A stretch of 64,000 nt of DNA from an uncultured Gammaproteobacteria bacterium. GTDB taxonomy: Bacteria > Pseudomonadota > Gammaproteobacteria > Pseudomonadales > JAHEGP01. The stretch spans positions 198,619 through 262,618 of the forward strand of contig CAVROQ010000033.1 in assembly GCA_963722805.1 (NCBI GenBank). The letters are read 5' to 3'. A model generated the notes under the pieces. That model made no database searches. It saw only the letters and a list, made by a program, of their open reading frames with translations, and had not been told where the DNA came from. Position 1 is the stretch's first letter. Each line of letters starts with the position of its first letter. The position numbers and the translations under genes were made by a program. Below, one piece after another: positions 14,935 to 58,501 of this stretch.

Positions 14935-14937
14935 CCG

Positions 14938-15381
14938 TTAGCTCCCGTCGCTTGCCATTTGTTTAAACTTCCAGGTGGTGAACGCACTGTCACCCTCGTG
15001 ATACAGGGTGTCGATAAGCAGTTCTACCGTGGCGCCCACGCTTACGCAGTCGGGTTTGTCGACCATCTGCCCGATCAGCCGCAGGCCGCATTCGAGGTCA
15101 ACGACGCCCATTGCATAAGGCGTAAAAGGCTCATCGTACTTGTGTGGAGGTGGAGGCGGAAAGTCGGCTACCGCATAGCTCCAGAGCACGCCACGACCGC
15201 CAAAATCGCAGTCTTGCATATTCGGTTTGACGCAGTCCGGGTTATGACAGAAATCAGCGCGCGGAAAATAGGGCGTGTTGCAACCGGCGCACCTGGAACC
15301 ATGCAGCCTGGCGCCGTCGCTCTCTGAAAACAGCCCGTCGATGCAGGGTTGGCGCCCCTGTGGTGCAGTGGATTCCGACAT
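14938..15381 (-). CDS. DUF35 OB-fold/zinc-ribbon protein (BbsA/ChsH2-C-like thiolase partner)
   Basis: 147 aa. Zn-ribbon CAGCNTPYFPRADFCHNPDC followed by an OB-fold-like segment. Paired with the thiolase gene. Confidence 0.75.
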   Translation of the reverse strand: MSESTAPQGRQPCIDGLFSESDGARLHGSRCAGCNTPYFPRADFCHNPDCVKPNMQDCDFGGRGVLWSYAVADFPPPPPHKYDEPFTPYAMGVVDLECGLRLIGQMVDKPDCVSVGATVELLIDTLYHEGDSAFTTWKFKQMASDGS

Positions 15382-15395
15382 GAAAATGGCTCCTT

Positions 15396-16457: not shown

Positions 16458-16529
16458 AGTCTACTGGCAATGGCTGGACGCCTCCATCCGTGCTGGCATC
16501 AAATGCGGCCTTTGCCATCTCAAATTTGG
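16458..16529 (-). promoter_or_regulatory. Conserved promoter module, copy C: 33-bp motif, 33-bp spacer, TAGACT. Drives the etfA operon
   Basis: Minus strand reads CCAAATTTGAGATGGCAAAGGCCGCATTTGATG-N33-TAGACT. TAGACT lies 93 nt upstream of the etfA ATG. Spacing is identical to the copies at 17797 and 48297. Confidence 0.65.
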
Positions 16530-17796: not shown

Positions 17797-17868
17797 CCAA
17801 ATTTGAGACGCTATAGGCCGCATTTGATGTTTGTCGTGCTAGAGGCACAAAAAATTTGTCTTTAGACT
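17797..17868 (+). promoter_or_regulatory. Conserved promoter module, copy A: 33-bp motif, 33-bp spacer, TAGACT. Drives the small-ORF/acyl-CoA ligase operon
   Basis: CCAAATTTGAGACGCTATAGGCCGCATTTGATG-N33-TAGACT. TAGACT lies 114 nt upstream of ATG 17977. Confidence 0.65.
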
Positions 17869-17976: not shown

Positions 17977-18285
17977 ATGACACAGTTAAAGGCAGGCAGC
18001 CGTATGCGCAGCTCGGTTTGCGCGACCGAGGTGATGGTGATTGCCGCTCCCGCTGCTGACACAGAAGTGAGTTGTGGTGGCGCGGTGATGATTGCCATGA
18101 CGGAGCAGCCCGCCGGTGGTGAAGTTGACGCCGAGCATGCCGGCGGGACCTTGCTGGGCAAGCGCTATGTTAACGAGGCCGGCGACCTGGAGTTACTCTG
18201 TACCAAGCCCGGGGACGGTTCTTTGTCGGCTAACGGTGTGACTTTGTTGCACAAAGAAGCCAAGCCCCTGCCGTCGTCGGATTAG
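17977..18285 (+). CDS. Small hypothetical protein (102 aa) with an internal two-fold repeat
   Basis: First ORF after promoter copy A. Two related segments (VCATEVMVIAAPAADTEVSCGGAVM and GDLELLCTKPGDGSLSANGVTLL). No recognisable family. Confidence 0.4.
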   Translation: MTQLKAGSRMRSSVCATEVMVIAAPAADTEVSCGGAVMIAMTEQPAGGEVDAEHAGGTLLGKRYVNEAGDLELLCTKPGDGSLSANGVTLLHKEAKPLPSSD

Positions 18286-18356
18286 TCCGGATACTGCAGG
18301 CGGTTACGCGTTTGCTGGTGCAGTATTGGGGCTGTGCGGTCCACGGGGACTTGAGC

Positions 18357-19856
18357 ATGAATATAATGATGTTGCTGGAGATGGCGTCCCAGGGTTTTGG
18401 CGAGCGTATTGCTTTTACCCACGGTGACGATTCACTCACATACAAGGAGTTGTATCACGCAGCCGGTGCTGCCGCTGCCTATATTCGTGAGTCGGGCTGT
18501 AGTTATGTGGCGATGCTGGATGTCAGCAGTCTGGCGGCGCCGGTGGCTTTGTTTGGCAGCGCCTGGGCGGGGGTCGCCTATGTGCCGATCAACTATCGCC
18601 TCGCCGGGCATGAAATCAAGGCTTTGTTGGAGCGGGTGGAACCGGCGCTATTGATTACCGGGGCCGATCAACAGCATGAATTCAGTGGTCACGCCAACAT
18701 CCATCCATTGCAGCGCGATAAGTTTCTCGCTCTGGCTCGCAACGGTAATCCGCCCGGGCCGGACTGGTCAATGGACGCTGAGGATACCGGGGTGTTGCTA
18801 TTCACCAGTGGCACTACCGGTGCCCCCAAGGCTGCGCTGCTGCGCCAGAAGCATCTGGTATCTTATATTCTTGGCTCCGTAGAATTCATGTCGGCGGCAG
18901 AAGACGATGCGGCGTTAGTGTGTGTGCCGCCCTATCATGTGGCGGGCATTTCTGCGATGTCGAGTTCTGTATATTCCGGGCGAAGGGTCGTACAGCTGTC
19001 CGATTTTGAGCCCCGCGCCTGGCTCGACCTGGTGCGGCAAGAACGCATCAGCAATGCTTTTGTGGTGCCGACTATGTTGGCGCACATTATCGAAACGGTT
19101 GAGCGCGACGGCGATACGGCGCTACCCAGCCTGCGTTCGCTGGCTTACGGTGGCGGCAAGATGCCGCTATCGGTTATTGAGCATGCGATGCGCCTGTTCC
19201 CCAATGCTGAATTCACTAACGCTTATGGTTTAACCGAAACCAGCTCTACGGTTGCGGTGCTGTGCCCGCAGGATCATCGCCTTGCCGCAGCCAGTGATAA
19301 CCCCGCCATCAGGCGACGTTTGGTGTCGGTGGGCCAGGCCTTACCGGGGGTTGAGGTGCAAATCCGGGATGATGACGGCACACCCCTGGGAGCGGGCCAG
19401 CGCGGCGAAATCTTTGTGCGTGGTGAGCAGGTTTCGGGTGAATATGTGGGGACTGGCAGTCTGCTCGATGCCGCAGGCTGGTTTCCTACCCGGGATGCGG
19501 GTTCGATGGACGCAGACGGTTACTTGTTTCTGGAGGGCCGGGCTGACGATGTCATTGTTCGCGGCGGTGAGAATATGTCGCCGGGTGAAATCGAGGATGT
19601 TTTGCTGGAACATCCGGGGGTTGCCGATGTGGCTATCGTCGGGATTCCGGACGAGCAGTGGGGTGAGGCGGTGGCAGCCGCGGTGGTGCTCAAACCCGGG
19701 CAGTGCGCCGATGCTGCTGCTTTGCAGCAATGGATTAAAGATCGTATGCGCAGCTCCCGGGTACCGAATGTGTTGATGTTCTGGCCGGAGCTTCCCTATA
19801 ACGAAACGGGTAAGTTGTTGCGACGGGTGGTGAAGGCTGAGTTGGCGAAAGCCTGA
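18357..19856 (+). CDS. AMP-dependent acyl-CoA synthetase/ligase
   Basis: ORF 18312..19856 trimmed to ATG 18357. AMP-binding motif LLFTSGTTGAPKAALL. Later YGLTETS, GWFPTRD and GKLLRR motifs of adenylate-forming enzymes. Confidence 0.85.
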   Translation: MNIMMLLEMASQGFGERIAFTHGDDSLTYKELYHAAGAAAAYIRESGCSYVAMLDVSSLAAPVALFGSAWAGVAYVPINYRLAGHEIKALLERVEPALLITGADQQHEFSGHANIHPLQRDKFLALARNGNPPGPDWSMDAEDTGVLLFTSGTTGAPKAALLRQKHLVSYILGSVEFMSAAEDDAALVCVPPYHVAGISAMSSSVYSGRRVVQLSDFEPRAWLDLVRQERISNAFVVPTMLAHIIETVERDGDTALPSLRSLAYGGGKMPLSVIEHAMRLFPNAEFTNAYGLTETSSTVAVLCPQDHRLAAASDNPAIRRRLVSVGQALPGVEVQIRDDDGTPLGAGQRGEIFVRGEQVSGEYVGTGSLLDAAGWFPTRDAGSMDADGYLFLEGRADDVIVRGGENMSPGEIEDVLLEHPGVADVAIVGIPDEQWGEAVAAAVVLKPGQCADAAALQQWIKDRMRSSRVPNVLMFWPELPYNETGKLLRRVVKAELAKA

Positions 19857-24452: not shown

Positions 24453-25454
24453 ATGTCTAGCCCAACCCAATCCACCAATAAAATCACTTTCTATATTGCC
24501 CGTATGGCACAGCGGGGTTTTAGCAGTGAGCAAGTGCTGGAGGGTTCGGGGCTGGCGCTGGATGAGGTGCAGGGGGAGCAATACCGCCCCTCGCCAGATC
24601 AATACCGGGTCATTATTGGCAATATGTTGCGCCTCTCTGGCGACCGCTTTCTGGGTATCGGCATCGGTTCAGAATTTAAAATCAGCGAGCTGGGTGTGCT
24701 GGGCTATGCGGCGCTGAGCAGCGCCAATCTCGCTCAGTCGCGTGAGCTGTTTATTAAGTACGACGCGCTGGTTGAGCACATACTGACCCCGAATACTGAG
24801 GTCGGCAACGGCAAATGGGTGACCGAATTGGTGGAGACCTTCCCGCTGGGGGAGATCCTGCCATTTGCAGTGGAGGAGTTTGTCAGTCGCACCGTGGGCC
24901 TGGCGTCGAGCCTGACCAATCGCCCTTTTCCGGTGCTGGAGTTGCGCCTTAGCTATCCGCCACCCCCGGAGCTGGACGCCTATCGCCGTGCATTTGACTG
25001 CCCCATGCTGTTTAACCAGCCGCGCAACCTGGTGTACTGGGACATCAACTGTCTTGCGGACCCGATAAGCCTCGCCAACCAAGATGTGTTCAAGCTGTGT
25101 GAACAGCAGTGCCAGATGTTGGTGAATAAGCTGGCCGACGGCAGCTTGCTGTCGAGCAATATTCGGGACGCGCTGGTGAAAACACCTGGCGAATTTCCTT
25201 CACTGGAGGCCATGGCGCGGCGGCTGAAAATGGGCTCTCGCACACTGCGTCGCAGACTGGTGAAAGAAAACCTGACCTATCAGCAGATTCTTGACGACAC
25301 CCGCAAAGACCTTGCCATCCAGTATCTGGAGTATACCTCGCTGACACCCAAGGAGATCGGCTACCTGCTGGGCTATAACAGCGTCAGCAATTTTCGCCGT
25401 GCGTTCAAGGGCTGGACCGGTAAGAAACTGACCGACTATCGCCAGAATGGCTAG
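24453..25454 (+). CDS. AraC-family transcriptional regulator
   Basis: 333 aa. C-terminal double-HTH region (SLEAMARRLKMGSRTLRRRL...YLLGYNSVSNFRRAFKGWTG). N-terminal ligand/dimerisation domain. The only regulator gene in the window. Confidence 0.85.
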   Translation: MSSPTQSTNKITFYIARMAQRGFSSEQVLEGSGLALDEVQGEQYRPSPDQYRVIIGNMLRLSGDRFLGIGIGSEFKISELGVLGYAALSSANLAQSRELFIKYDALVEHILTPNTEVGNGKWVTELVETFPLGEILPFAVEEFVSRTVGLASSLTNRPFPVLELRLSYPPPPELDAYRRAFDCPMLFNQPRNLVYWDINCLADPISLANQDVFKLCEQQCQMLVNKLADGSLLSSNIRDALVKTPGEFPSLEAMARRLKMGSRTLRRRLVKENLTYQQILDDTRKDLAIQYLEYTSLTPKEIGYLLGYNSVSNFRRAFKGWTGKKLTDYRQNG

Positions 25455-45936: not shown

Positions 45937-46734
45937 TTAAAGCGTGCGATCAGCCCGCAACCTGGCAAATAATTGCTTTGCGACTTCGGCAGGCGAGCCT
46001 TGCAGAAATTCACAGTTGCCCTGCAACTCGGGTACAAATTGTCTCACCAGTATCGCTTGCGGTTGCAGTTGCTCTGCGCCAAGGCCCAGCTCATCGGGAG
46101 AGATTATCGAGGGTTTCTTTTTTCGCGCTGCCATTTTCGCCTTGGCGCCAGGAAAGCGGGGTTCGCCGAGTTCATTGCTCACCGTGACAACCGCCGGCAA
46201 CAGGCCCTCTACAATCTCATCGCCTTCAGATGTGGCGCGGGTAACCCGCAACACATCGCCGTTCATCTCTACTGCACGGGCCAGGGAAACCACGGCAATG
46301 CCAAGCTTTTCTGCCAGCAGTGCCGGCACCACGCCCTGGTCGTCGTCTGAGGCCTGGCGGCCACACAGCACCAGGTCTGCACCACCGCTACTGTTGATGT
46401 AGGCGGCAAGCATAGTGGCGATAATCTGGCCATCGAGCTGGGTCGGGTCGGCTGTAATACCCACCAGTTCATCTGCTCCCAGGGCAGCGCAGTGCTTGAG
46501 CAGCGCTGCCGGGTCCTCGCCGATGGACACCGTGCTGATAGTGCATTCAATGCCGGCATCGCGAAGCCTGAGTGCTGCCTCCAGCGCCTGCTCGTCGTAG
46601 GCGTTAATAAGCCTTGGAATCGCCGCTACTTGCGGCGTTTTACCGTCGGCAGCCATGTGCAATTTACCCGCCAATACGTAGTTGTTGACTGCATCCGGGT
46701 CGAGCACTTCCTTGGCACAGATTACAATTCGCAT
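45937..46734 (-). CDS. etfB: Electron transfer flavoprotein beta subunit
   Basis: ORF trimmed to ATG 46734 (AGGAGA 8 nt upstream). MRIVICAKEVLDPD... and LVLCGRQASDDDQGVVPALLAEKLG signature. No etfA gene is adjacent. Confidence 0.85.
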   Translation of the reverse strand: MRIVICAKEVLDPDAVNNYVLAGKLHMAADGKTPQVAAIPRLINAYDEQALEAALRLRDAGIECTISTVSIGEDPAALLKHCAALGADELVGITADPTQLDGQIIATMLAAYINSSGGADLVLCGRQASDDDQGVVPALLAEKLGIAVVSLARAVEMNGDVLRVTRATSEGDEIVEGLLPAVVTVSNELGEPRFPGAKAKMAARKKKPSIISPDELGLGAEQLQPQAILVRQFVPELQGNCEFLQGSPAEVAKQLFARLRADRTL

Positions 46735-46796
46735 GGGGTGGCTCTCCTGCAACTGGTGATCCGGTTTGCGCTGTTCATCGCCGCAACCACAGGATG

Positions 46797-47084
46797 TTAT
46801 TTGTCATCGAAAAATTCCAGGCTGTTTTCGTCGCACCAAACGGCCTCATGGATAAACCCCTGGGGCTTAAGGGTGAGCTGGTTCATCAGGTACCAGCGCC
46901 AGGGATAGTCACCAAAATCCCGGTAGTCTCCGGTAAGCGTTCCGGCAAAATCCTGACGCCCTGCAAACTTGCTATTGGGCTGGCGCCCACCGCCGTCGCA
47001 CTCTGCCCGGCGTCCGCAATAGTCGGCATTGAAACCGCTTCTGTAAGGCAATTCTTGTGACTCCTGGCGGGTGCTGGGGGTCAT
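46797..47084 (-). CDS. Small hypothetical protein (95 aa)
   Basis: ATG 47084 is preceded by AGGAG (8-nt spacer), 12 nt after the NMO stop. Wedged between the NMO and etfB genes. No recognisable family. Confidence 0.45.
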   Translation of the reverse strand: MTPSTRQESQELPYRSGFNADYCGRRAECDGGGRQPNSKFAGRQDFAGTLTGDYRDFGDYPWRWYLMNQLTLKPQGFIHEAVWCDENSLEFFDDK

Positions 47085-47096
47085 GGCAGCCACTCC

Positions 47097-48203
47097 TTAT
47101 TCTGGTTCGTCATCGGCGAAACGGTCGAATACATCGAGAGCCTCCTCGACGAGGTCGGAGAGCACCTGGCGGGCGGGCTTCATCTCGGTAACATAGTGAA
47201 TGCCCTGGCCGGCGGCCTCGGTCATGAGATCCTTGCGCTGGTAATCGAGGGAGCCCTGGATATAGTCCGATGACAGCATCATCTGCAGCGGCGGTTTGAG
47301 GACGGGCGGCGCATCGGGTCGACTCCATTCGTCGTGCCAGGGGCTGCGGGTGGTGCGCATGGTATAGCCGGAGATACAGTCGGAGAAGACTGCATCTTCG
47401 GTCTCGGCCTCAATCAGTCGCTCCTTCAGAGCCTGCCCGAGGTCGGATTCCCGGGAGGTGAGCCACAGCGAGCCGGTCCAGACCCCGTCGGCGCCCAGCG
47501 CCAGCGCCGCAGCGAGGTGGCGGCCGGTGGTAATCCCGCCGGCAGCGATCACCGGTACACCGCTGCCGCGGGCGGCGTCTACCACCTGGGGCACAATAGA
47601 GAAGGTTCCGATGGTGCCGGTATGACCGGCCGCATCATAACCCTGGGCAATAATGACATCGGTGCCGGCGGCTATCTGGCGCTGTGCCTGGCGCGGTTTG
47701 CCGACCAGTCCCCACACCTGCATGCCCTGCTGGTGGGCGCGGTCGAGGATAAAGGCGGGGGAGCCGAGCCCGGATGCAAACACCGGCACCCGCTCATCAA
47801 ATACTACGTCGAGCTGGTTGAGGGCGCGTTTCTGGTCGAGGCCGCCCCAGGTATAGAGGTCGGGGGCCTGCTTGGGATCGGGCACCTGATACTTGTGCTT
47901 GATGGCGCGCTCAAACTCCCGCTGTTGTGGAGGAATCATGGCCATCAGTTCTTCCACGCTCTTGTCCTCGGGCACCGAGGCCGGCAGCACCAGGTCGATA
48001 CCGAAGGGCTTGCCGCCGACCCGCTCGCGGATCCATTGGATATCGGCGGCGATATGGTCGGGGGTGTGCATGGCCTCGCCGAGTACGGCAAAGCCGCCGG
48101 CGTTGATGACCGCGACGGCGACATCCTTGCAGTGGGTAAAGGCGACGATGGGATATTCGATGCCGAGCTTTTCACACAGCTGGGTATGCAATGGATCACT
48201 CAT
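47097..48203 (-). CDS. Nitronate monooxygenase / 2-nitropropane dioxygenase-like FMN enoyl reductase family
   Basis: 368 aa. TIM-barrel FMN blocks (IIAQGYDAAGHTG, VPVIAAGGITTGRHLAAALALGADGVWTGS). Confidence 0.8.
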   Translation of the reverse strand: MSDPLHTQLCEKLGIEYPIVAFTHCKDVAVAVINAGGFAVLGEAMHTPDHIAADIQWIRERVGGKPFGIDLVLPASVPEDKSVEELMAMIPPQQREFERAIKHKYQVPDPKQAPDLYTWGGLDQKRALNQLDVVFDERVPVFASGLGSPAFILDRAHQQGMQVWGLVGKPRQAQRQIAAGTDVIIAQGYDAAGHTGTIGTFSIVPQVVDAARGSGVPVIAAGGITTGRHLAAALALGADGVWTGSLWLTSRESDLGQALKERLIEAETEDAVFSDCISGYTMRTTRSPWHDEWSRPDAPPVLKPPLQMMLSSDYIQGSLDYQRKDLMTEAAGQGIHYVTEMKPARQVLSDLVEEALDVFDRFADDEPE

Positions 48204-48296
48204 GGTACTACTCTCGCAGGGATGCCCGGGAGCATCGAAATTTACCCGCTTGGCCTGACAAAATAAACGCCTCCGCGCGCCGCTGTCGCCAGATGT

Positions 48297-48368
48297 CCAA
48301 ATTTGAGATGCCGTAGGCCGTAATTGAGTCCTGCACCGGTAGGAAGCACCCCTGATAGTTATTAGACT
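48297..48368 (+). promoter_or_regulatory. Conserved promoter module, copy B: 33-bp motif, 33-bp spacer, TAGACT. Drives the nine-gene CoA-transferase operon
   Basis: CCAAATTTGAGATGCCGTAGGCCGTAATTGAGT-N33-TAGACT. TAGACT lies 117 nt upstream of ATG 48480. Confidence 0.65.
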
Positions 48369-48479: not shown

Positions 48480-49670
48480 ATGGGCACAGTGCTCGATGAT
48501 GTTGTCGTACTGGATTTGACGAACAGTTTCTCTGCCGCGCTGACTGCCGCATTCCTGGCAGATTTTGGCGCCCAGGTGATCCGCCTCGATCGCATACCCC
48601 AGGCGCCGCGGCCGGCCGGGGACACTGGCTGGAATTGCCAGGCAGACCTGATTCACCGCAACAAACAAAGTCTGGCACTGGATATCAGCGCTGCGCAGGG
48701 CCGCAAGCTATTGCTTGAAACCGCATTGCGGGCCGATGTCTTGCTGACCGATTGGTCGCTGCAGGAATTACAGTCACTGGGGCTGGATTATCCCAGCCTG
48801 GAGGGCCCGCGTCCCGATCTGGTCTATGCGCGGGTTTCCGGATTTGGTCCGCAGGGGCCAGACAGTGAGCTGCCCCTGATCGATGAATTAGCGGCCGCGC
48901 GCACCGGCATGATGCCGATTCTGCCCCAGCCCGGTGAACCGCCGGTGTATACCGGGGCTGGTGCCATGCATGCCACGGTGTTACTGGGCTTTGGGGTTGT
49001 CACCGCGCTGCTGTATCGCCAGCTCAGCGGTGAGGGGCAGTGTGTGGATACCTCCCTGTTTGCGGCGAATATGTACGGCGCCAGCCTGGATTTACAGGCC
49101 TTTCTTGCTATCGGCCATGGCGATCGCCTGCTCAACCCGATTTCACGGCTGGATGTATCCAACCCCATGTCTGGCGCGCTTTACCACAGCGCTGATGGGC
49201 GCTGGGTAACCCTCACGATGCCGGATACCGATCGTTGGTGGCCCGACCTCGCCGAGGCGCTGGGGCTTGCGGTTGACGATGAGCGCTTCAATTCCCACGA
49301 CAAACGCTGTGAGCACAATCGAGTCGCCCTGATTAATACCCTGGAGGAGGGGTTTGCCAAACAGCCCGCCAGTCACTGGCGCAAGCTATTCCAGCACAAG
49401 CAGATGTCGGCGGATGTGATCGAGCAGTTTGACTATCCTGCCAATGATCCCCAGGTGCGGGACAATCGCTATATCGTCGAACTCGATCATCCCAGCTTTG
49501 GAAAAATCGACAGCCTCGGTTTTCCACTTTATATGAGCGAAACACCGGCCCGGCTTGAAAGCCTGGCGCCCTGCGTTGGCCAGCACAGCCAGAAGGTGTT
49601 GCAGGAACTTCTGGGTTATTCGCTGGACCAGATACACCAATTTAAAAGTAGCGGCGTAGTCGCGTTATAA
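48480..49670 (+). CDS. Family III CoA-transferase paralog lacking the conserved catalytic Asp
   Basis: 396 aa. VVVLDLTNSFSAALTAAFLADFGAQVIRLD. The segment aligned to the Asp block reads YTGAGAMHATVLLGFGVV...SGEGQC, with Ala at the Asp position. Confidence 0.8.
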   Translation: MGTVLDDVVVLDLTNSFSAALTAAFLADFGAQVIRLDRIPQAPRPAGDTGWNCQADLIHRNKQSLALDISAAQGRKLLLETALRADVLLTDWSLQELQSLGLDYPSLEGPRPDLVYARVSGFGPQGPDSELPLIDELAAARTGMMPILPQPGEPPVYTGAGAMHATVLLGFGVVTALLYRQLSGEGQCVDTSLFAANMYGASLDLQAFLAIGHGDRLLNPISRLDVSNPMSGALYHSADGRWVTLTMPDTDRWWPDLAEALGLAVDDERFNSHDKRCEHNRVALINTLEEGFAKQPASHWRKLFQHKQMSADVIEQFDYPANDPQVRDNRYIVELDHPSFGKIDSLGFPLYMSETPARLESLAPCVGQHSQKVLQELLGYSLDQIHQFKSSGVVAL

Positions 49671-49685
49671 CCCAGGAGAGGTGCG

Positions 49686-50897
49686 GTGACTAAAAAAGCT
49701 CTGGAAGGGGTCAGGGTGCTGGATCTTACGGTTTGGTTTCAGGGGCCGGTAGCGGCGCAATACCTGGCGGACTTTGGCGCAGACGTGATCAAGGTTGAGC
49801 GGCCCAAGGGTGGTGACCAGGCCCGCGGCGTTCGCAGTATCAAGGCACTGGAAATTGGTGATTGGAATCAGTACTTTCTGGTGATCAACCGCAACAAAAA
49901 GAGCATTGCGATCGATCTCAAAAAGCCTGAAGGCCAGCAAATCATGTATCGGCTGGTGGAAAAATCGGATGTGTTCCTGTCGAACCTGGCGCCGGAAATG
50001 CTCGTGGCCTGGGGCTTGTCCTACGACAAGCTGAAGGAGGTAAATCCCGGGATTATATACGCCACCAATACCGGCTACGGCCGCTTTGGCGGTGTATCCA
50101 AGCCGTCATTCGACATGACCGTGCAGGCGCTAACCGGCATTATGGCGCGGCTCGGCGAGCCGGGGCAGCCGCCTATCTATCTCGGTATGGGTTCAGGGGA
50201 TGCCTTTGGCGGCATACTGGCGGCTTTCGGTATTTTGCTGGCCTTGTATAAGCGCAATCGCAGCGGCGAGGGCCAGTGCCTGGACGCTTCGCTGTACGGC
50301 GCCCAGCTCTATCTTGCGGCACCCATGTTGCAGTCCTTTCTGGCGGGTAATAAAGGCGCTGCCCTGCAGCAGTCGCGCAGGGACGTTGCCAACCCCTTGT
50401 GGAATCTCTATCCCGCTGCTGACAAGTGGGTTTATATCTGCGAGCCCAACCAGGACCAGCGATTTGAGGCGCTGTGCACAGCGCTGGATGCCCCGGGACT
50501 TGCCAGCGACCGGAATTTTGACAGCAGTGAGAAACGGGCCGTTAACAATCGCGCTCTAATCGCAGTTTTAGATGAGCTAACAAGAAAACAAAGTTGCGAA
50601 GAGCTAATGTCGGCGCTGACGTCGCAGGAGCTTGTTGCCCAACCGATAAATAACCTGGCGGATGTTATTGCCGACGAGCAGGCCTGGCAGAACAACTATT
50701 TTATGAAGGCCTATTGCGAAGAGGTTAAACGCGAAGTTGATGTACGCGGCCTGCCTGTGACCCTGTCAAAAACACCCGGTCAAATTAATACCCTGGGGCC
50801 GCAATTGGGCCAGGATACTGAAATACTGATGATGGAATTATTGCAATACGAGTGGGAAGAAATCGAAGCCTTGAAAGCGGTGGGCGCAATTCCCTGA
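49686..50897 (+). CDS. Family III CoA-transferase
   Basis: 403 aa, GTG start with AGGAGAG upstream. LEGVRVLDLTVWFQGPVAAQYLADFGADVIKVERPKGGD. Asp block GMGSGDAFGG...SGEGQC. Confidence 0.85.
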   Translation: MTKKALEGVRVLDLTVWFQGPVAAQYLADFGADVIKVERPKGGDQARGVRSIKALEIGDWNQYFLVINRNKKSIAIDLKKPEGQQIMYRLVEKSDVFLSNLAPEMLVAWGLSYDKLKEVNPGIIYATNTGYGRFGGVSKPSFDMTVQALTGIMARLGEPGQPPIYLGMGSGDAFGGILAAFGILLALYKRNRSGEGQCLDASLYGAQLYLAAPMLQSFLAGNKGAALQQSRRDVANPLWNLYPAADKWVYICEPNQDQRFEALCTALDAPGLASDRNFDSSEKRAVNNRALIAVLDELTRKQSCEELMSALTSQELVAQPINNLADVIADEQAWQNNYFMKAYCEEVKREVDVRGLPVTLSKTPGQINTLGPQLGQDTEILMMELLQYEWEEIEALKAVGAIP

Positions 50898-50918
50898 TGG
50901 CAGAGGAATGAGAATAAT

Positions 50919-51809
50919 ATGAGTTGGAGTGATTGGAATGAGGTGGTCGGAGACGGCCTCGATAATTTCAAGGAGATTCAATACCAAAAGAAAAGCCATC
51001 TGCAGCTGGGCGGCGCAATAGCGCGGATCTCCTTGAATAAGCCTGAAAAGATGAACACCCTGACCCTGGCAACCGTGGACGAGATGTTTCGTGCTTTTTA
51101 CGATGCCAATCACGATCCGCTGATCGGGGTGATTGTTATTGCAGCCAAGGGCAAGCACTTCGGTGCCGGTGGCGATGTCGATTGGGAGCGCTGGGGTTTG
51201 CGCGAAGCATTTTACAATCGCTATCCGCACAATCGGCTGATGCGTATGTCGCGCAAGCCTGTCATTGCCCAGGTGCAGGGCTATTGTATTGCCGGTCATA
51301 ATCATATGGCCTATTGCTGCGATTTTACGATTGCCGCCGACAATGCGATTTTTGGCCAGGCCGGCCCGCGAGTGTCATCGCCGGCAGACGGGTTTTTTGT
51401 GCCCTACCTGACCAAAGTGGTGGGGGCGAAAAAGGCCCGGGAATTATGGATGCTCTGTCGCAAGTACCAGGCAGATGAAGCACTCGCCATGGGGCTGGTC
51501 AATACCGTGGTGCCGCTGTCCCAGCTGGAGGCAGAAGTTGACCAGTGGTGTGAGGAAATGCTGTCCCTCAGCCCGGGTTGCCTTGAGGTACTCAAGGCCG
51601 CTTTTGACCAGGAGATGGATGGCTATAAGGAGTCCTGTGTGACCTCGGCGGCAATGTATCCCGACTGGTTCGATATGCCCGAGGGTAAGGAAGGTGGCGC
51701 GGCTTTTGTTGCCAAGCGCAGGCCCGAGTTTTGGGATATCCGCCAGCGCGAGTCCCAGATGAGGCAGCAGTTGCTGGACGAATACGATGTGCTGCATGGT
51801 GGGGAATAG
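50919..51809 (+). CDS. MenB/BadI-subfamily crotonase (1,4-dihydroxy-2-naphthoyl-CoA synthase-like)
   Basis: 296 aa. DFTIAADNAIFGQAGPRVSSPADG and KKARELWMLCRKYQADEALAMGLVNTVVPL closely track the MenB signature blocks as I recall them. Confidence 0.75.
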   Translation: MSWSDWNEVVGDGLDNFKEIQYQKKSHLQLGGAIARISLNKPEKMNTLTLATVDEMFRAFYDANHDPLIGVIVIAAKGKHFGAGGDVDWERWGLREAFYNRYPHNRLMRMSRKPVIAQVQGYCIAGHNHMAYCCDFTIAADNAIFGQAGPRVSSPADGFFVPYLTKVVGAKKARELWMLCRKYQADEALAMGLVNTVVPLSQLEAEVDQWCEEMLSLSPGCLEVLKAAFDQEMDGYKESCVTSAAMYPDWFDMPEGKEGGAAFVAKRRPEFWDIRQRESQMRQQLLDEYDVLHGGE

Positions 51810-51853
51810 CTGTTGGCTGCAATGCCCTAATTTGTTCTCACCCGGGGGTTTCA

Positions 51854-53017
51854 GTGTTTAAAGACAAGGCGTGTATTGTGGGCATTGGCGAGACAGCCTA
51901 CTGTCGCAAACCCGGCTCGGGAATGTCTGAGGAGGCTTTGCAGTTACGCGCCTCGGTGGCGGCCTTGATTGACGCCGGTCTTACCGGGCAGCAAATTGAC
52001 GGCATATTGGCGTTTCCCAATGTGGGCAAATCCGAGGCATTCGCCGCTAGCCTGGGTTGTGACAATTTGCGCTTCGCCGCCACTATCCACATGGGCGGCG
52101 CTGCACCGCTGGCCTCGCTGCGGATGGCGGCCATCGCTGTGGCTTCAGGCGCTGCCAACTATGTGTTGATTCCCGGGGGTTGGAATGGCTATTCGGGTGC
52201 CCGGGTGCGGCAGACAGTGTCTAACGATAAAAACTCGATTCCGGGAGGCGCCATTGCCTGGGATTACTATATGCCGCAGGGCCTGACTGCACCGCCCCAG
52301 TGGTATGCGCTGATGGCCCGGCGCCATATGCACGATTTCGGGACTAGCCACGAGCAGTTAGGCGCGGTTGCGGTGGCGATGCGCAAACATGCCCAGCTCA
52401 ACCCCGCTGCCTTAATGTACGGCAAGCCCCTGGATATCGAACAGTACCTCGCCTCCCCGATGCTGGCCGACCCCTATCGTATTAATGACTGCTGTCTGGA
52501 AACCGATGGCGCTGCCGCATTTATTGTGACCACAGTAGAGCGGGCCAATGATCTTGGCCGGCAGCCAATCTATATTATGGGCGCCGCCGCGGGACAGCCC
52601 TACCCGGCAGACGATTTTACCAACCGTCGAGATTTTCACCGCAACGGTTTGTCGATTGCCGCCCCCGAAGCATTTGCAATGGCCGGTATCAAACCGGGCG
52701 ATGTCGATTTTGCCCAGATCTATGACTGCTTTACCTTTGAGGTGATCCAGCAACTCGAGGAAGCGGGTTTCTGTGAGCGCGGTGACGGTGGCGCTTTTGT
52801 CGAGAATGGCGGGATTGAACTCAAGGGCCAGCTACCGGTGAATACCCACGGAGGACTGCTTTCTGAAGCCCACTCCCTCGGCATAGGTCATGTGGTCGAG
52901 GCCGTAAAACAGCTGCGCGGAGATTGCGGCCAACGCCAGGTGTTAAATGCCGAGATCGGCGTTGTCACCGGCTGGGGCGATTTTGGCGACGGCAGTATTG
53001 CTATTTTAAGGCGTTGA
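51854..53017 (+). CDS. Thiolase-like protein (SCP-x type), second copy
   Basis: ORF trimmed to GTG 51854. ACIVGIGETAYCRKPG...NTHGGLLSEAHSLGIGHVVEAV. Followed by a DUF35 gene. Confidence 0.8.
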   Translation: MFKDKACIVGIGETAYCRKPGSGMSEEALQLRASVAALIDAGLTGQQIDGILAFPNVGKSEAFAASLGCDNLRFAATIHMGGAAPLASLRMAAIAVASGAANYVLIPGGWNGYSGARVRQTVSNDKNSIPGGAIAWDYYMPQGLTAPPQWYALMARRHMHDFGTSHEQLGAVAVAMRKHAQLNPAALMYGKPLDIEQYLASPMLADPYRINDCCLETDGAAAFIVTTVERANDLGRQPIYIMGAAAGQPYPADDFTNRRDFHRNGLSIAAPEAFAMAGIKPGDVDFAQIYDCFTFEVIQQLEEAGFCERGDGGAFVENGGIELKGQLPVNTHGGLLSEAHSLGIGHVVEAVKQLRGDCGQRQVLNAEIGVVTGWGDFGDGSIAILRR

Positions 53018-53031
53018 AAAAGGTGGGCAAA

Positions 53032-53445
53032 ATGGACCGGGAATATGACAAGCCACTACCGGGGCTCGACGGTTTAAACGGGCAGTTTTATGCCTTTTGC
53101 AAACAGCAGGATCTGCATTTCCAGCGCTGCAGCAACTGTCAACACTTTCGCCACGTTCCGCGGGAAGTCTGCGCGGTATGCAACTCCTTCGAGTGGGATT
53201 GGGTGCGCGCCAGTGGCAGAGGCAAGGTATACAGCTGGACCGTTATCGAGCGAGCGTTGCACCCGGCGTTTGTTGCTGACACGCCGCTGGCGCCGGTGAT
53301 CGTTGAAATGGAAGAGGGTGTGCGCTTGCTGGCAAATATGCTCGATTGCCCGCCGGCTGAACTCGCTATCGATATGCCGGTGACCATTGCCTACGAGGCG
53401 GTCACTGAAGACCTGACGCTGCCGCGCTTCCGGCGCATTGAGTAA
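53032..53445 (+). CDS. DUF35 OB-fold/zinc-ribbon protein, second copy
   Basis: ORF trimmed to ATG 53032. Zn-ribbon CSNCQHFRHVPREVCAVCNS followed by an OB-fold segment. Confidence 0.75.
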   Translation: MDREYDKPLPGLDGLNGQFYAFCKQQDLHFQRCSNCQHFRHVPREVCAVCNSFEWDWVRASGRGKVYSWTVIERALHPAFVADTPLAPVIVEMEEGVRLLANMLDCPPAELAIDMPVTIAYEAVTEDLTLPRFRRIE

Positions 53446-53462
53446 ATGGACGGAGCATTGCT

Positions 53463-54242
53463 ATGGATTTGAAACTGCCAGAAACTTTTAGTTACGAGAA
53501 GCGCGGGCATATCGCCATTATGACGATCAATCGTCCCCAGGCGATGAATGCCTTCACCGCTGAAATGCTGGCGGCCATGGATGCCTGCTTTGAAGATTTC
53601 CAGCACGATGATGAACTGTGGGTAGCGATACTGACCGCCACTGGCGATAAATCGTTTTGTTCCGGCATGGACCTGGGGGAGGCTATTCCGCTGCTCAATG
53701 CCGGCGATGAAATGGGCTATGAGGATCATACCAAGCGCCCGTTTTCTGATGTATTCAAGCCCATCATTGCCGCCGTAAACGGTTTTTGCATCGCCGGCGG
53801 TATGGAGTTTATGCAGGGAACTGACATTCGTATTGCCGTCGAACACGCCACTTTCGGGCTCGGCGAAGTGCGCTTCGGATTGATTCCCACCGGCGGTACC
53901 CACGTACGGCTGCCACGCCAAATACCCTGGGCGGTGGCCATGGAATTGCTGTTGACCGGCGAGAATATATCAGCCCAGCGCGCATATGATATTGGCTTGA
54001 TCAACAAGATTGTGGCAGCGGAAGAGCTGCTGGAGGAGGCGCTGAAGTTGGCCGAAAAAATCTGCCGCAATAGCCCGCTGGCAGTGCGCACCGCCAAGGA
54101 AATAGCCGTGCGCCAGGCCAATCTTGAACCCGGTTTCGTGTTGGAAAAAGCCATTGGCGCAAGGGTATTCGGTTCCTATGACGCCCAGGAAGGACCCAAA
54201 GCATTTATGGAAAAGCGCAAACCTGAATTCAAGGGCCGCTAG
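53463..54242 (+). CDS. Enoyl-CoA hydratase/isomerase (crotonase)
   Basis: 259 aa. IAIMTINRPQAMNAF...TATGDKSFCSGMDL...AAVNGFCIAGGMEF...FMEKRKPEFKG. Confidence 0.85.
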   Translation: MDLKLPETFSYEKRGHIAIMTINRPQAMNAFTAEMLAAMDACFEDFQHDDELWVAILTATGDKSFCSGMDLGEAIPLLNAGDEMGYEDHTKRPFSDVFKPIIAAVNGFCIAGGMEFMQGTDIRIAVEHATFGLGEVRFGLIPTGGTHVRLPRQIPWAVAMELLLTGENISAQRAYDIGLINKIVAAEELLEEALKLAEKICRNSPLAVRTAKEIAVRQANLEPGFVLEKAIGARVFGSYDAQEGPKAFMEKRKPEFKGR

Positions 54243-54282
54243 CGCCGCCAATGCTTACCATTGATATAGGGCGTAGGGCACT

Positions 54283-55545
54283 ATGACTGAAACGACTGCA
54301 AGCGGGCCATTGGCCGGGCTGCGAGTGCTGGACCTGTCAACCATGCTGGCTGGACCGTATGGCGCAACCTTGCTGGGAGACCTTGGCGCCGATGTGATTC
54401 GCATCGAATCGCACTACGGCGATGAGAGTCGTCATCTGGGGCCCAGGCGTGGCACTGAGCGGGGCCCTTATTTGAGCCTCAATCGCAGCAAGCGCGCCAT
54501 GGTGCTTGACCTGCAGCAGCCGGGCGGACGGGAAGCCTTCGCCAGGATTGCGAAAACCGCCGACGTGCTGATTACCAATATCCGTGAGCCGGCGCTGAGC
54601 AAGCTGGGTTTGGATTACGAAAAAGTACTGGCCATAAAGCCCGATATCATCTGGATCAGGGTCACTGCATTCGGACCCGATGGTCCCTATGCCGGTCGGC
54701 CGGGGATCGACTTTCTTGCCCAGGGCTATACCGGCGTGCTGGCATTAAACGGCGAGCCGGATGGGGAGCCTGTGCGCACCGGTTTTCCCGCGGTGGATGT
54801 AATGACCTCATTGTTGGTGAGCAACGGAGCGTTGGCGGCATTGCGGGAGCGCGACGCCAGCGGCAAAGGGCAGCGTATTGAAATTTCCCTGCTTGATGCC
54901 CTGATGCACGCCCAGGCCAGTTCGATCGGTACTTACCTTGCGACCGGAGAGGCGCCGGCTAGAACCGGCAATCGCAGTTTGTATTTTGCACCCTCGGGAG
55001 TCTACCCAACCCGCGATAACCAGTACGTGGTGATTACCACGCCCGCGGAAAAATTTTTCGTTAAGCTGTGCCAGGCACTGGAAACCGATTGGTATCAGGA
55101 TACTCGCTTCCATTCCATTACCGCCCGGCTGGACAACCAGGATGAGCTCGACAGACTGTTGGGCGCGCGCACTGCCCACTTTAGCCGGGTGGAGCTGGTG
55201 GATCGCTTGATCGCGGCGGATGTGCTGACGGCGCCCATTAATAAGGTCGAAGACGTGGTGCGGGACCCGCAGATTCTGCACAACCGGATGATTACCCAGG
55301 TACAGCATCCCACCCTGGGTGAAGTCGGGGTTACCGGGGTGCCCATCCGGTTTTATGGTACTCCCTGTGAAGTGCGAAAACATCCGCCGTTGCTGGGTGA
55401 GCACACCCGGGAATTACTGCTTGAAGCCGGCTACACCGAAGCGGAGATCACTGAACTGATAGCATCGGGCCTGGCTGCCGATCATGCCGAGATCGAGCGT
55501 CAGCGCGCCGCACGCCGGGCGCGTAAAGCGCCCCGGAGCCCTTAA
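54283..55545 (+). CDS. Family III CoA-transferase
   Basis: 420 aa. LAGLRVLDLSTMLAGPYGATLLGDLGADVIRIESHYGDE. Asp block GFPAVDVMTS...SGKGQR. Confidence 0.85.
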   Translation: MTETTASGPLAGLRVLDLSTMLAGPYGATLLGDLGADVIRIESHYGDESRHLGPRRGTERGPYLSLNRSKRAMVLDLQQPGGREAFARIAKTADVLITNIREPALSKLGLDYEKVLAIKPDIIWIRVTAFGPDGPYAGRPGIDFLAQGYTGVLALNGEPDGEPVRTGFPAVDVMTSLLVSNGALAALRERDASGKGQRIEISLLDALMHAQASSIGTYLATGEAPARTGNRSLYFAPSGVYPTRDNQYVVITTPAEKFFVKLCQALETDWYQDTRFHSITARLDNQDELDRLLGARTAHFSRVELVDRLIAADVLTAPINKVEDVVRDPQILHNRMITQVQHPTLGEVGVTGVPIRFYGTPCEVRKHPPLLGEHTRELLLEAGYTEAEITELIASGLAADHAEIERQRAARRARKAPRSP

Positions 55546-55550
55546 GTCGG

Positions 55551-57068
55551 ATGGGTGCAGCAAATGTCTTTCGTCCCCTCGCGGGCTGGCAGTTATCAAT
55601 GCCGGCCCCGGAGTCGGTTGCCGATGCATATGCAAACCAATTATTGCGTGACCTGGGTGCCGGACTACCCGATCCCGTCATTGGCAATACCGTTGACGCG
55701 GCATTGGCCTGGGCCGACTCGGGCTTAATGTTCCTCTGTGGTGAGCTGAACCAGCCCCCACGACAGGGGCCCGGTGCGATTCCCTCCTGTGCCCGCGGGG
55801 TGATCAGTGCCATTCGAATGTTGGCGCCGCAAACCTTGTCCTCGGATATCGATGGTGCACTTTTACTGAGCGAACGAGCGGCCATGCTGGGCTTGCATGC
55901 CAGGGGCTCGATGTCGCCGAATCAAAGCTGCCGCGTGTTGCCCAGCCTGGATGGCTGGCTGGCGCTGAACCTGGCGCGTCGAGAAGATTGGCTCTCGTTG
56001 GCGGCATGGTTACAAGCTGATAAGCCGATAGATAATTGGGATAGCGTCCGCCAGGCCGTGGCGCAGCGATACACCAATGAACTGGTCGAGCGTGGCCGAT
56101 TATTGGGTTTGCCCCTCGCGGCGGCCAAGGTCACCACCAAAACTGCAAAGCCCTGGTTCAGGCTGCAGCAGCGCGGATGGCAGCGACCGCCACCTGCCGC
56201 AACAACCGGGCCGCTGGTAATCGATTTGTCATCACTGTGGGCTGGCCCACTGTGCAGCCACTTACTGCAGCAGGCAGGTGCGCGGGTGATCAAGGTTGAG
56301 AGTTTGCAACGACCCGACGGGGCCCGGCCCAGCGGGGTGCCGCCCGACGGGGCCCGGCCCGGCGGGGCCCGGCCCGGCGGGGTGCCGCCCAGCGGGGTGC
56401 CGCCCAGCAGGATGCACCCCGACGAGTCGCAAGCAGATCTTACCGGTTATAGCGATTTCTATCATTTGCTCAATGCCGGAAAATCCTCTGTGGCCCTGGA
56501 TTTCTCCCGTCCCGAGGGAGTGCGTCAATTGCAGGCGCTGCTGCGCCATGCAGATATCGTTATCGAGGGGTCGCGCCCGCGGGCGCTGCAGCAACTGGGT
56601 ATCGACGCCGGGGCCATCGTGCAGTCGAAACCCGGCCTGGTCTGGCTGGGAATCAGTGGCTACGGGCGCAGCCAGCCTGAAGCCAATTGGGTGGCCTTTG
56701 GTGACGATGCGGCGATGGCGGCGGGTGTCGCCAATACCGGGGCCAGCTCGCCGCTGTTTGTGGGTGATGCCCTGGCTGACCCGCTCTGTGGTGTGCATGC
56801 TGCGCTACTGGCGTTGGCCTGTTGGCGCGCGGGTGAAGGCGCTCTGCTGGACATATCACTGCACGACGTGGCGGCACATTGCCTGGCCTATGCCCCGAGC
56901 ATTGTGCAAGGAGATGTTGTTGCCGGCCCTGGACAGCAATGGCAGTTTGCCATTGCCGGACACAGCACCCAAATAAGAAAACCACAGGCGCGCCGCCCCT
57001 TGCAACTGGCTGCCAGGCTGGGCGCAGATACTCGCACTGTGCTGCGGGAGTTTGCGATTCCATGTTAA
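55551..57068 (+). CDS. Atypical family III CoA-transferase-like protein with rearranged domain order and a pentapeptide-repeat insertion
   Basis: 505 aa. The N-terminal ~200 aa align by eye to the distal large-domain plus small-domain part of a CaiB unit (SGLMFLCGELNQPP..., LPSLDGWLALNLARREDWLSLAAWL). The C-terminal ~280 aa start with the normal head (LVIDLSSLWAGPLCSHLLQQAGARVIKVES) and keep the Asp block (FVGDALADP...AGEG), but lack a small domain. Confidence 0.65.
   Translation: MGAANVFRPLAGWQLSMPAPESVADAYANQLLRDLGAGLPDPVIGNTVDAALAWADSGLMFLCGELNQPPRQGPGAIPSCARGVISAIRMLAPQTLSSDIDGALLLSERAAMLGLHARGSMSPNQSCRVLPSLDGWLALNLARREDWLSLAAWLQADKPIDNWDSVRQAVAQRYTNELVERGRLLGLPLAAAKVTTKTAKPWFRLQQRGWQRPPPAATTGPLVIDLSSLWAGPLCSHLLQQAGARVIKVESLQRPDGARPSGVPPDGARPGGARPGGVPPSGVPPSRMHPDESQADLTGYSDFYHLLNAGKSSVALDFSRPEGVRQLQALLRHADIVIEGSRPRALQQLGIDAGAIVQSKPGLVWLGISGYGRSQPEANWVAFGDDAAMAAGVANTGASSPLFVGDALADPLCGVHAALLALACWRAGEGALLDISLHDVAAHCLAYAPSIVQGDVVAGPGQQWQFAIAGHSTQIRKPQARRPLQLAARLGADTRTVLREFAIPC
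56316..56420. repeat. In-frame 15-bp tandem repeat, 7 units, inside the CoA-transferase-like gene
   Basis: GACGGGGCCCGGCCC / AGCGGGGTGCCGCCC / GACGGGGCCCGGCCC / GGCGGGGCCCGGCCC / GGCGGGGTGCCGCCC / AGCGGGGTGCCGCCC / AGCAGGATGCACCCC. Encodes DGARP-SGVPP-DGARP-GGARP-GGVPP-SGVPP-SRMHP. Confidence 0.9.
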
Positions 57069-58501
57069 TAAAGTCAGCGGAGTTGGCAGGGGAGCTGGTC
57101 GATCTGCGAGTCGCGCAAGGTCTGATTGCCGAGCTGGGAAAAAACCTGGTACCACGGCCGCAGGAGCGGATCATCGATGCCGCTGGCGGCGCAGTTTTAC
57201 CGGGCCTGCACGATCACCATATACATTTGTTTGCACTTGCTGCCGCCCGTAGCTCAGTGATGTGCGGTCCACCTGAAATAAATAACCGGGCGGAGTTGGC
57301 TGAGGCTTTGCTAAAGCAGCCGGGTAGCGGTTGGCTGCGGGGTGTGGGCTACCACGACTCGGTGGCCGGCTCGCTTGATCGCTGGCAGCTGGATAAATTG
57401 TTGCCGAACCGGCCGTTACGTATTCAGCATCGCAGCGGCAAGATGTGGATTTTGAACAGCCTGGCAATGGCGCATTTGGGGTTAGATATCGAGAGCGAGC
57501 TTCCTGGTATTGAACGCGACGCCGCAGGTCGGGCGAGCGGTCGCTTGTTTCGTATGGATGACTGGCTTGCTTCGAAGCTGGTGCGCCAGCCGCCACCCGG
57601 GCTTGGTGTGCTGTCCCGTGAGCTGGCGAGCTACGGCTTGACCGGCCTTACCGACACCAGCGCAAGTAATTCAAGCGCTGCGATGGCAGCGCTACAGCAG
57701 GCCCTGGAGCGGGGAGAGTTGCTGCAGCGTTTGCTGGTAATGGGTACCCTCGAACTACCCGCAGGTTCACACCCCTTGCTGCAGCGCGGTGCAGTAAAAA
57801 TCTTACTGGATGATCATCACCTGCCCGACTACGACCAACTGCTTGCGACCGTGTCACAGGCGCATCGCCAGCAGCGCGCAGTCGCCATCCATTGCATCAC
57901 CCCCACTGAGCTGGTGTTCGCTGCCACTGCCCTGCTGGAAGCGGGAGCGGTTGCTGGTGATCGGATTGAGCACGCCTCGATAGCCCCGGATGAGACACTG
58001 CCATTGCTGTATAGGGCCGGCGCAACCGTGGTGACCCAGCCGGGATTCCTGTGGCAGCGTGGTGAGCAGTACCTGCGCGATGTCGCTGTTGCTGAACAGC
58101 CCTTGTTGTACCGCGGCCAGGCATTTCTCAATGCGGGTATTCCGCTGGCGGGTAGCAGCGATGCGCCCTATGGTGATGCCGACCCATGGCTTGCCATCAG
58201 GGCGGCGGTGCAGCGGCAGACTGCTGGCGGTGTTGAAATTGGCGCGGCGGAAAAACTGTCGCCGGAGCGGGCCCTGGCATTGTTTACCACCCCGGCCACT
58301 GCGCCCGGAAGTACCCCCCGGGCGATTGAGGTGGGAGCCATTGCCGACCTCTGTCTACTGGATCGTCCCTGGCAAAAAGCCAGGCAACGTCTTTGTAGTG
58401 CCGACGTATTTGCCACAGTGCGCAGCGGTGAGTTGATATACCAGCGTGAGCCCTCATGCCGCGGATGCAATATCCTGGCTAGCAAAGGGCAGATAGTCTG
58501 A
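57062..58501 (+). CDS. Amidohydrolase-3 family metal-dependent hydrolase
   Basis: ORF trimmed to ATG 57062, overlapping the upstream stop by 7 nt. VLPGLHDHHIHLF metal-binding HxH motif. About 479 aa. Confidence 0.7.
   Translation: MLIKSAELAGELVDLRVAQGLIAELGKNLVPRPQERIIDAAGGAVLPGLHDHHIHLFALAAARSSVMCGPPEINNRAELAEALLKQPGSGWLRGVGYHDSVAGSLDRWQLDKLLPNRPLRIQHRSGKMWILNSLAMAHLGLDIESELPGIERDAAGRASGRLFRMDDWLASKLVRQPPPGLGVLSRELASYGLTGLTDTSASNSSAAMAALQQALERGELLQRLLVMGTLELPAGSHPLLQRGAVKILLDDHHLPDYDQLLATVSQAHRQQRAVAIHCITPTELVFAATALLEAGAVAGDRIEHASIAPDETLPLLYRAGATVVTQPGFLWQRGEQYLRDVAVAEQPLLYRGQAFLNAGIPLAGSSDAPYGDADPWLAIRAAVQRQTAGGVEIGAAEKLSPERALALFTTPATAPGSTPRAIEVGAIADLCLLDRPWQKARQRLCSADVFATVRSGELIYQREPSCRGCNILASKGQIV

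Follow-up and report, generated by a model that had tools for sequence, protein, structure and literature searches.

The stretch of DNA analyzed here (the window; 64,000 nucleotides from an uncultured gammaproteobacterium) was annotated with Pfam and NCBIfam, covering 53 ORFs. Nine genes on the forward strand, beginning at 48480, encode four family III CoA-transferases, two enoyl-CoA hydratases, a thiolase-like/DUF35 pair, and an amidohydrolase_3 protein, and orthologs of this operon were identified in Denitratisoma, Sterolibacterium denitrificans, and the locus L021. An earlier reading made from the sequence alone had described the genes as one tightly packed operon with gaps of no more than 44 nt and a single 7-nt overlap, a description that was upheld using start codons at 51854 (GTG), 53032 (ATG), and 57062 (ATG). 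Upstream of the operon lies CCAAATTTGAGATGCCGTAGGCCGTAATTGAGT (positions 48297 to 48329, forward strand), here termed the box, which is followed after 33 nt by TAGACT (48363 to 48368). This hexamer begins 117 nt before the ATG at 48480, the distance that had been proposed. An operon encoding an NMO-family flavoenzyme and the beta subunit of an electron transfer flavoprotein (ETF) reads away from the other side of the box, and two further copies of the module precede an etfA operon and an acyl-CoA ligase operon (Table 1). Also located near the copies were genes for a KstD-like 3-ketosteroid dehydrogenase, a BaiCD-like OYE flavoenzyme, XdhC, and MobA. The first gene behind copy 2 (17977 to 18285, forward strand) encodes a 102-amino-acid protein with no Pfam match; proteins of 67 to 69% identity occupy the same position in L016 and Pseudohalioglobus lutimaris, and it is a candidate pathway component.

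Table 1. Features of the window, and box positions estimated relative to predicted transcription start sites
Feature	Position	Strand	Description
etfA operon	11653..16370	-	etfA, DUF35, thiolase-like, Fe-S/CCG ETF:quinone oxidoreductase; behind copy 1
Module copy 1	16458..16529	-	Box 16497-16529, TAGACT 16458-16463; precedes etfA; orthologous copies in L016, L017, L018, L025
Amidohydrolase_2 protein, likely SRAH ortholog	16710..17678	+	Divergent from etfA across copy 1
Module copy 2	17797..17868	+	Box 17797-17829, TAGACT 17863-17868; precedes 102-aa gene and CoA ligase; ortholog in L016
Ligase operon	17977..19856	+	102-aa conserved protein and AMP-forming acyl-CoA ligase; behind copy 2
AraC-family regulator, candidate box binder	24453..25454	+	Arabinose_bd (1.5e-33), HTH_18 (3e-15), HTH_AraC (Pfam)
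Divergent NMO-etfB operon	45937..48203	-	NMO-family flavoenzyme 47097-48203; ETF beta subunit 45937-46752
-10 TAAATT, NMO-etfB promoter	48239..48244	-	TAGATT in L003 and Denitratisoma
-35-like TTTATT, NMO-etfB promoter	48262..48267	-	29 nt from box edge; conserved in window, L003, L009, L010, L021
Half-site 1, ATGTCCAAATTTGA	48293..48306	+	Copy 3; unit wrGKCC-NN-A-WW-TGA
Box copy 3	48297..48329	+	Common to CoA-transferase promoter (right) and NMO-etfB promoter (left); predicted regulator-binding site; orthologous copies in L003, L009
Half-site 2, TAGGCCGTAATTGA	48314..48327	+	Copy 3; 21 bp after half-site 1
Putative weak -35-like hexamer TAGGAA	48340..48345	+	17 nt before TAGACT
-10 hexamer TAGACT, CoA-transferase operon promoter	48363..48368	+	Predicted start site near 48375; invariant at N33 in nine modules
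Nine-gene operon	48480..58501	+	CoAT, CoAT, ECH, thiolase-like, DUF35/ChsH2-OB, ECH, CoAT, CoAT, amidohydrolase_3
Box centre, TAGACT promoters	-62		Estimated from predicted start sites
Box centre, Denitratisoma Mo-hydroxylase	-74		Estimated from predicted start sites
Box centre, NMO	About -81		Estimated from predicted start sites
Box centre, L010 / L005 Mo-hydroxylase	-83 / -85		Estimated from predicted start sites
Box centre, Denitratisoma NMO	-93		Estimated from predicted start sites

A degenerate 33-mer derived from the three copies matched the window at exactly three sites with no mismatches (16497 to 16529 on the reverse strand; 17797 to 17829 and 48297 to 48329 on the forward strand) and had no match in 100 dinucleotide-preserving shuffles. 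TAGACT was found exactly 33 nt past the box in all three, and the proposed third copy, spaced like the other two, stood at its exact coordinates. The hexamer itself is rare in the window, with nine occurrences on both strands compared with ∼20 expected, and three of the nine are inside modules. When the three module regions were aligned, similarity was confined to the box and TAGACT, and the unrelated spacers and flanks indicate that the copies are not recent duplications. A position weight matrix (PWM) scan of the whole window revealed no weaker fourth copy; the next-best score of 8.8 bits was below the shuffle maximum of 13.4 bits, and the gene block starting at 28621 is therefore without a copy, as the sequence-only reading had suspected.

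In structure, the box consists of a 14-bp unit, wrGKCC-NN-A-WW-TGA, repeated directly in tandem with a period of 21 bp. Ten occurrences of CCNNAWWTGA were identified in the window, six of which form three same-strand pairs exactly 21 bp apart, and strict pairs at this distance on one strand were present in 12 of the 15 boxes examined. The second repeat deviated from the strict pattern by at least one base in the L016 box at 5198 and in both boxes of Denitratisoma (L018). Within boxes, the two 14-bp units were identical to each other at 7 to 10 of 14 positions. Binding to head-to-tail repeats of this 21-bp period is classical for regulators of the AraC/XylS family. Reading CAAATTTG as a palindrome was discarded, as other genomes carry CCAAAAATGA, CCGCAAATGA, or CCGGTTTTGA at this point, by which the direct repeat is kept and the palindrome is lost.

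TAGACT conforms to the σ70 −10 form TAnnnT. The sequence 17 nt upstream of it is TGGAGG, TAGAGG, or TAGGAA in the window copies, and TGGAGG, TAGAGG, TGGGCA, TGGGAA, and TGGAGG were found at the −35 position in other copies, giving a general form TrGrrr that is a poor match to a −35 hexamer. Scanning the region for consensus σ70 promoters called none, which, together with the weak −35, fits dependence on an activator. Taking TAGACT as the −10 of a predicted start site, the box would extend from approximately −78 to −46 with its centre near −62, and the conserved core stops ∼10 bp upstream of the putative −35 hexamer. Several other elements were sought and dismissed: a σ54 promoter (no GG-N10-GC), an ECF-type promoter (no GGAAC on either strand), an FNR/CRP site (palindrome absent), an IHF site (none present), and TAGACT as a −35 (no conserved −10 at 17 nt downstream). 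Searching the window with Rfam, including the ∼105-nt leaders, identified no RNA family. A σ70-like promoter directed toward the Amidohydrolase_2 gene (TTGCCA-N16-TAATAT, 16512 to 16539, forward strand), which overlaps copy 1, was taken as a chance occurrence and is not conserved in L016 or L017.

Whether the divergent NMO-etfB operon shares the site had been raised as a question by the sequence-only reading, and the alignment of NMO upstream regions indicates that it does. A conserved promoter, TTTATT-N17-TAAATT/TAGATT, keeps a distance of exactly 29 nt to the opposite box edge in five loci (the window, L003, L009, L010, and L021), and this distance was 41 nt in Denitratisoma. At L021 the CoA-transferase operon has been relocated and is boxless, and the box has been kept with NMO alone. 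From the predicted start sites, the box centres at the different promoters (Table 1) are roughly in helical phase, which would be compatible with contact between an activator and RNA polymerase on a single face. Sharing of the box with NMO-etfB makes functional sense: ETF works as a heterodimer of alpha and beta subunits, of which copy 1 would control the first (etfA) and copy 3, by way of NMO, the second (etfB). The two subunit genes (alpha, 15396 to 16370; beta, 45937 to 46752) are in separate operons 30 kb apart, and they are also split in Denitratisoma and in L016/L021; a shared box offers an explanation for how they could stay in step.

Of the 15 loci retrieved by motif scans of genome and metagenome collections, four (L003, L005, L009, and L010) were true relatives; the others were rejected as chance matches from unrelated taxa, with no TAGACT and unrelated gene contexts. 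In addition, the neighborhoods of regulator, CoA-transferase, and etfA orthologs were scanned using PWMs that excluded the genome under test. True sites scored 20 to 37 bits, and the next-best match in ∼20 kb was below 8 bits. L003 and L009 represent the orthologous NMO/CoA-transferase locus (NMO 91 to 92% identical), and both carry the box, N33, and TAGACT. The same arrangement was identified in L016, where the regulator is 75% identical, before etfA and before the 102-amino-acid protein and ligase genes (30.4 and 20.9 bits; next best, −1.1), in P. lutimaris (L017) before etfA (32.4 bits), and in Denitratisoma before etfA (27.3 bits), the last in an intergenic region common to etfA and the divergent regulator gene. 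Outside the window, TAGACT at N33 thus reappeared independently in L003, L009, L016 (twice), L017, and L018. The etfA box of a Sterolibacterium MAG (L025; 23.7 bits) has TACAAT at N35 in place of TAGACT, and the box at NMO in L021 reached 37.1 bits. In L005 and L010 the box precedes CoxM/S/L-like Mo-hydroxylase genes with CATAAT as the −10 at N56 and N54, respectively, and a weaker box with TAGACT at N45 lies between the AtcABC-like genes and NMO-etfB of Denitratisoma, so the distance from box to promoter varies at Mo-hydroxylase promoters (N45, N54, and N56), a point that counts against the activator reading given below. The variants TACAAT, CATAAT, and TAAATT imply that TAGACT is an ordinary −10 hexamer.

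By these comparisons, the box qualifies as a phylogenetic footprint spanning gamma- and betaproteobacteria, and very probably it is a functional regulatory site. The tie that had been proposed of the CoA-transferase operon to the promoters of etfA and the ligase is sustained at the level of the site by the common box and by the presence of the module at orthologous promoters elsewhere. Copy 3 before the CoA-transferase operon is kept only in the close relatives L003 and L009. Scans of the CoA-transferase operons of L021 and S. denitrificans found no box, and that of Denitratisoma has a degenerate one, scoring 13 bits and followed by TATTCT at about N44; whether this operon belongs to the regulon thus appears to depend on the lineage. 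Syntenic orthologs of the regulator, CoA-transferase, and etfA with 60 to 70% identity were found in Denitratisoma oestradiolicum, S. denitrificans, Aromatoleum, and Thauera, and the Halieaceae P. lutimaris and Seongchinamella sediminis also carry orthologs of all three.

[quoted passage not shown] Judging by their content, the operons behind the boxes appear to belong to this oxygen-independent pathway: the window encodes an SRAH-like hydrolase, a KstD-like dehydrogenase (58544 to 60250), ETF, and an ETF quinone reductase, and synteny with the proven anaerobic steroid degraders D. oestradiolicum and S. denitrificans includes the CoA-transferase operon, the etfA operon, and the regulator. The Amidohydro_2 protein encoded at 16710 to 17678 is 79% identical to a syntenic P. 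lutimaris protein and 77% identical to a Denitratisoma protein, and it is likely the SRAH ortholog. Both P. lutimaris and Denitratisoma are among the carriers of SRAH-like genes, and P. lutimaris and S. sediminis (Halieaceae) have been named as putative steroid degraders (PMC11780191). A Halieaceae/Cellvibrionales genome equipped with the oxygen-independent steroid pathway is therefore the most likely source of the window. No structural genes for AtcABC (1-testosterone hydratase/dehydrogenase, xanthine-oxidase family) were found in the window, which carries only the XdhC and MobA maturation genes. Since CoxM/S/L-like genes lie behind a box in L005, L010, and Denitratisoma, the source genome probably encodes an AtcABC-like enzyme outside the window, most likely following a fourth box, and the regulon in relatives would also take in an AtcABC-like Mo-hydroxylase.

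The sole transcription factor among the 53 annotated ORFs of the window is the AraC-family protein encoded at 24453 to 25454. In L016, L017, and L018, boxes are found no more than 10 kb from the orthologous gene, a Halieaceae JGI contig displays the same synteny of the regulator according to gene calls alone, and the Denitratisoma gene is divergent from etfA across the box. Both helix-turn-helix (HTH) segments are near-invariant among the orthologs. Two observations count against this protein as the binder. Around three AraC homologs with 58 to 59% identity (L022, L023, and L024), the 10 kb on either side contained no box, although this says little, since the HTH segments of these homologs are conserved and the genes they control may sit elsewhere. 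In addition, no AraC gene was found within 10 kb of the Sterolibacterium etfA locus (L025). An extra single half-site, CCAGATATGA, was identified at 9932 of L018 (reverse strand), between etfA and the Denitratisoma regulator gene and ∼70 bp upstream of the latter, where it may serve in autoregulation.

In relatives, the regulator gene is located directly before the fused CoA-transferase gene that opens the 28621 block, abutting or overlapping it in L016, L017, and the JGI contig, and in P. lutimaris it is also in line with the genes for SRAH, the 102-amino-acid protein, and the ligase. Hence, in these genomes, transcription of the box-less block probably continues from promoters farther upstream. 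In the window, a PLP-dependent decarboxylase gene and an ion-channel gene on the opposite strand (25646 to 28180) lie between the regulator and the fused 812-amino-acid CoA-transferase, and this pair looks like an insertion that has cut the block off from its upstream promoters. The XdhC and MobA-like molybdenum cofactor maturation genes (22819 to 24350, forward strand) are found just upstream of the regulator.

Taken together, the preferred interpretation, to which a probability of roughly 55% is given, is that the box is an AraC-type activator operator bound by the AraC ortholog encoded at 24453 to 25454, and that it activates a steroid regulon in both directions; the protein is assigned by association, namely synteny. 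An AraC/XylS-family activator, most likely this gene product and presumably responding to a steroid-derived inducer, would bind with its two DNA-binding domains placed head to tail on the 14-bp repeats, which are 21 bp, or two helical turns, apart. The site would be centred near −62 of a σ70 promoter with a poor −35 (TAGGAA) and TAGACT as −10, from where the bound protein could recruit RNA polymerase for transcription of the nine-gene CoA-transferase/hydratase/aldolase operon. The same bound protein would serve the divergent NMO-etfB promoter, with the box centre near −81. Copies 1 to 3 and the Mo-hydroxylase copies of relatives would make up one regulon, in which ring A/B enzymes would be co-induced with both electron-acceptor halves, etfA (copy 1) and etfB (copy 3).

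The proposed mechanism, an AraC-type activator with a tandem-repeat operator, is conventional. It resembles AraC (araI1-I2) and XylS (Pm sites) in having two head-to-tail repeats 21 bp apart, centre to centre, upstream of a weak −35, in a regulator with an N-terminal ligand/dimerization domain and a C-terminal double HTH, and in the control of a catabolic pathway. It differs in that the proximal sites of AraC and XylS overlap the −35, whereas the core here ends ∼10 bp upstream of the putative −35, which counts against the reading; one site here appears to serve two divergent promoters, at approximately −62 and −81; the recognition sequence is unrelated; and the N-terminal domain is PF12625 rather than the AraC cupin. 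That domain, combined with HTH_18, is the architecture of CdpR, VqsM, and GliR of Pseudomonas aeruginosa. CdpR (PDB 5chh) is the closest solved relative of the regulator, and its nearest NCBIfam models are GliR, the best match, QhpR, and CypR, all far under their cut-offs; with 132 bits against a cut-off of 570, the protein is not a GliR ortholog. The published motifs of this subfamily are RGWYNNNWNCGGCCA for CdpR, GGATSNNNTYGGCCA for VqsM, and ...YSGMC / GGAYA... for GliR, which activates from sites upstream of and overlapping the −35 (PMC8151288). GGMC or CGGCCA closes these 15-bp motifs and also the half-site when it is read as its reverse complement, TCAWWTNNGGMCA, and in this form the GGMC element is present in every half-site here (motifs from PMC8151288). 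In contrast, the AWWTGA element and the strict 21-bp tandem are unreported for these proteins, and the target pathway is different. An operator shared by dispersed steroid degradation operons is also a feature of the KstR and KstR2 (TetR), TesR/TeiR (LuxR), and EdcR (TetR) systems, but these regulators are from other families, are mostly repressors with palindromic operators, and control aerobic 9,10-seco or 4,5-seco pathways.

The box could be genuinely regulatory and yet be bound by another protein encoded outside the window, or its binder could be a repressor or anti-activator. Taken together, the two versions are considered somewhat unlikely. The AraC gene is linked to the box by synteny only, box loci exist with no AraC gene nearby (L025 and L021), as do AraC homologs with no boxes nearby, and a TetR gene lies close to the Sterolibacterium loci; however, no second regulator recurs beside the boxes. 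TetR, IclR, GntR, and LysR dimers use inverted repeats, so the head-to-tail 21-bp repeats seen here are typical of AraC/XylS and not of those families, and an FNR or CRP-like palindrome is missing. The GGMC that the half-site has in common with the CdpR/VqsM/GliR motifs also speaks for an AraC-type binder, and location upstream of a weak −35, the position of an activator, argues against repression.

Two accounts dispense with such an activator, and very little credence is given to either. If the box were mainly a recombination site or mobile repeat, a point of operon exchange that plays no part in transcription, sequence breaks at its edge would be accounted for. One such break was observed between two metagenome contigs, in which L009 (1 to 984) and L010 (1651 to 2634) share 99.2% identity over 984 nt across NMO, its promoter, and the box, until homology stops exactly at the box 3′ edge, L009 continuing into the CoA-transferase operon and L010 into CoxM/CoxS; moreover, nucleotide-level similarity of L005 and L010 is limited to the 39-bp box. 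Either the contigs represent paralogous loci of a single genome or operators have recombined with each other at this junction, and ordinary homologous recombination between dispersed identical operators is enough to account for it. The annotation of the window has no integrase or transposase nearby, the distance from the box to the promoter hexamers is fixed on both sides, and the box is kept at orthologous promoters in two proteobacterial classes while its flanks have diverged, all of which weigh against a mobile repeat. Recognition of the module by an alternative sigma factor, for which the box would be an upstream extension of the promoter and no activator would be needed, would suit the unusual invariance of TAGACT in nine modules and the lack of a consensus σ70 call in the region. 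Yet the 33 nt that separate the box from the hexamer greatly exceed the spacing of a −35/−10 pair, neither GG-N10-GC (σ54) nor GGAAC-N16-TCT (ECF) is present, and TACAAT, CATAAT, or TAAATT replaces TAGACT at other box-linked promoters.

In the searchable literature on anaerobic steroid degradation, no mention of AraC, a regulator, or a promoter was found. The AraC-type operator could accordingly represent the first cis-regulatory code, together with its regulator, for oxygen-independent steroid catabolism: one AraC-family sensor on an asymmetric tandem operator would fire two divergent promoters together and co-induce ring-degrading enzymes, Mo-hydroxylase, and the two ETF subunits from their separate operons. 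Marine Halieaceae and denitrifying Rhodocyclales would have this system in common, and horizontal transfer, operator included, has probably carried it between them. This wider picture is tentative, its chances being put a little short of even. As a conserved operator, the box offers a sequence-based means to delimit the 2,3-seco regulon. It could nominate missing ring A/B enzymes (the CoA-transferase/aldolase operon, the NMO-family enzyme, and the 102-amino-acid protein) and flag cryptic steroid degraders in metagenomic data from marine and sediment environments, and the module could supply parts for a steroid-responsive biosensor.

Genes related to electron transfer were also observed in the window. 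An MtrC/MtrB/MtrA-like outer-membrane cytochrome conduit, a further multihaem cytochrome, and a NapC/CymA-like quinol dehydrogenase are encoded at 2218 to 10221 (reverse strand), with a single glycosyltransferase gene between this group and the ETF:quinone oxidoreductase of the steroid cluster; in a member of the Halieaceae, the oxidation of steroids may in this way be coupled to electron acceptors outside the cell (metals). The cluster also contains a gene for an F420H2-dependent quinone reductase family protein (45496 to 45897). F420 biosynthesis genes (CofC/D/E/H-like) are present by the homologous clusters of Aromatoleum anaerobium and S. denitrificans (L024, 2717 to 7805; L020, 16056 to 20549), and these F420-related genes hint at a deazaflavin-dependent step in proteobacterial anaerobic steroid degradation.
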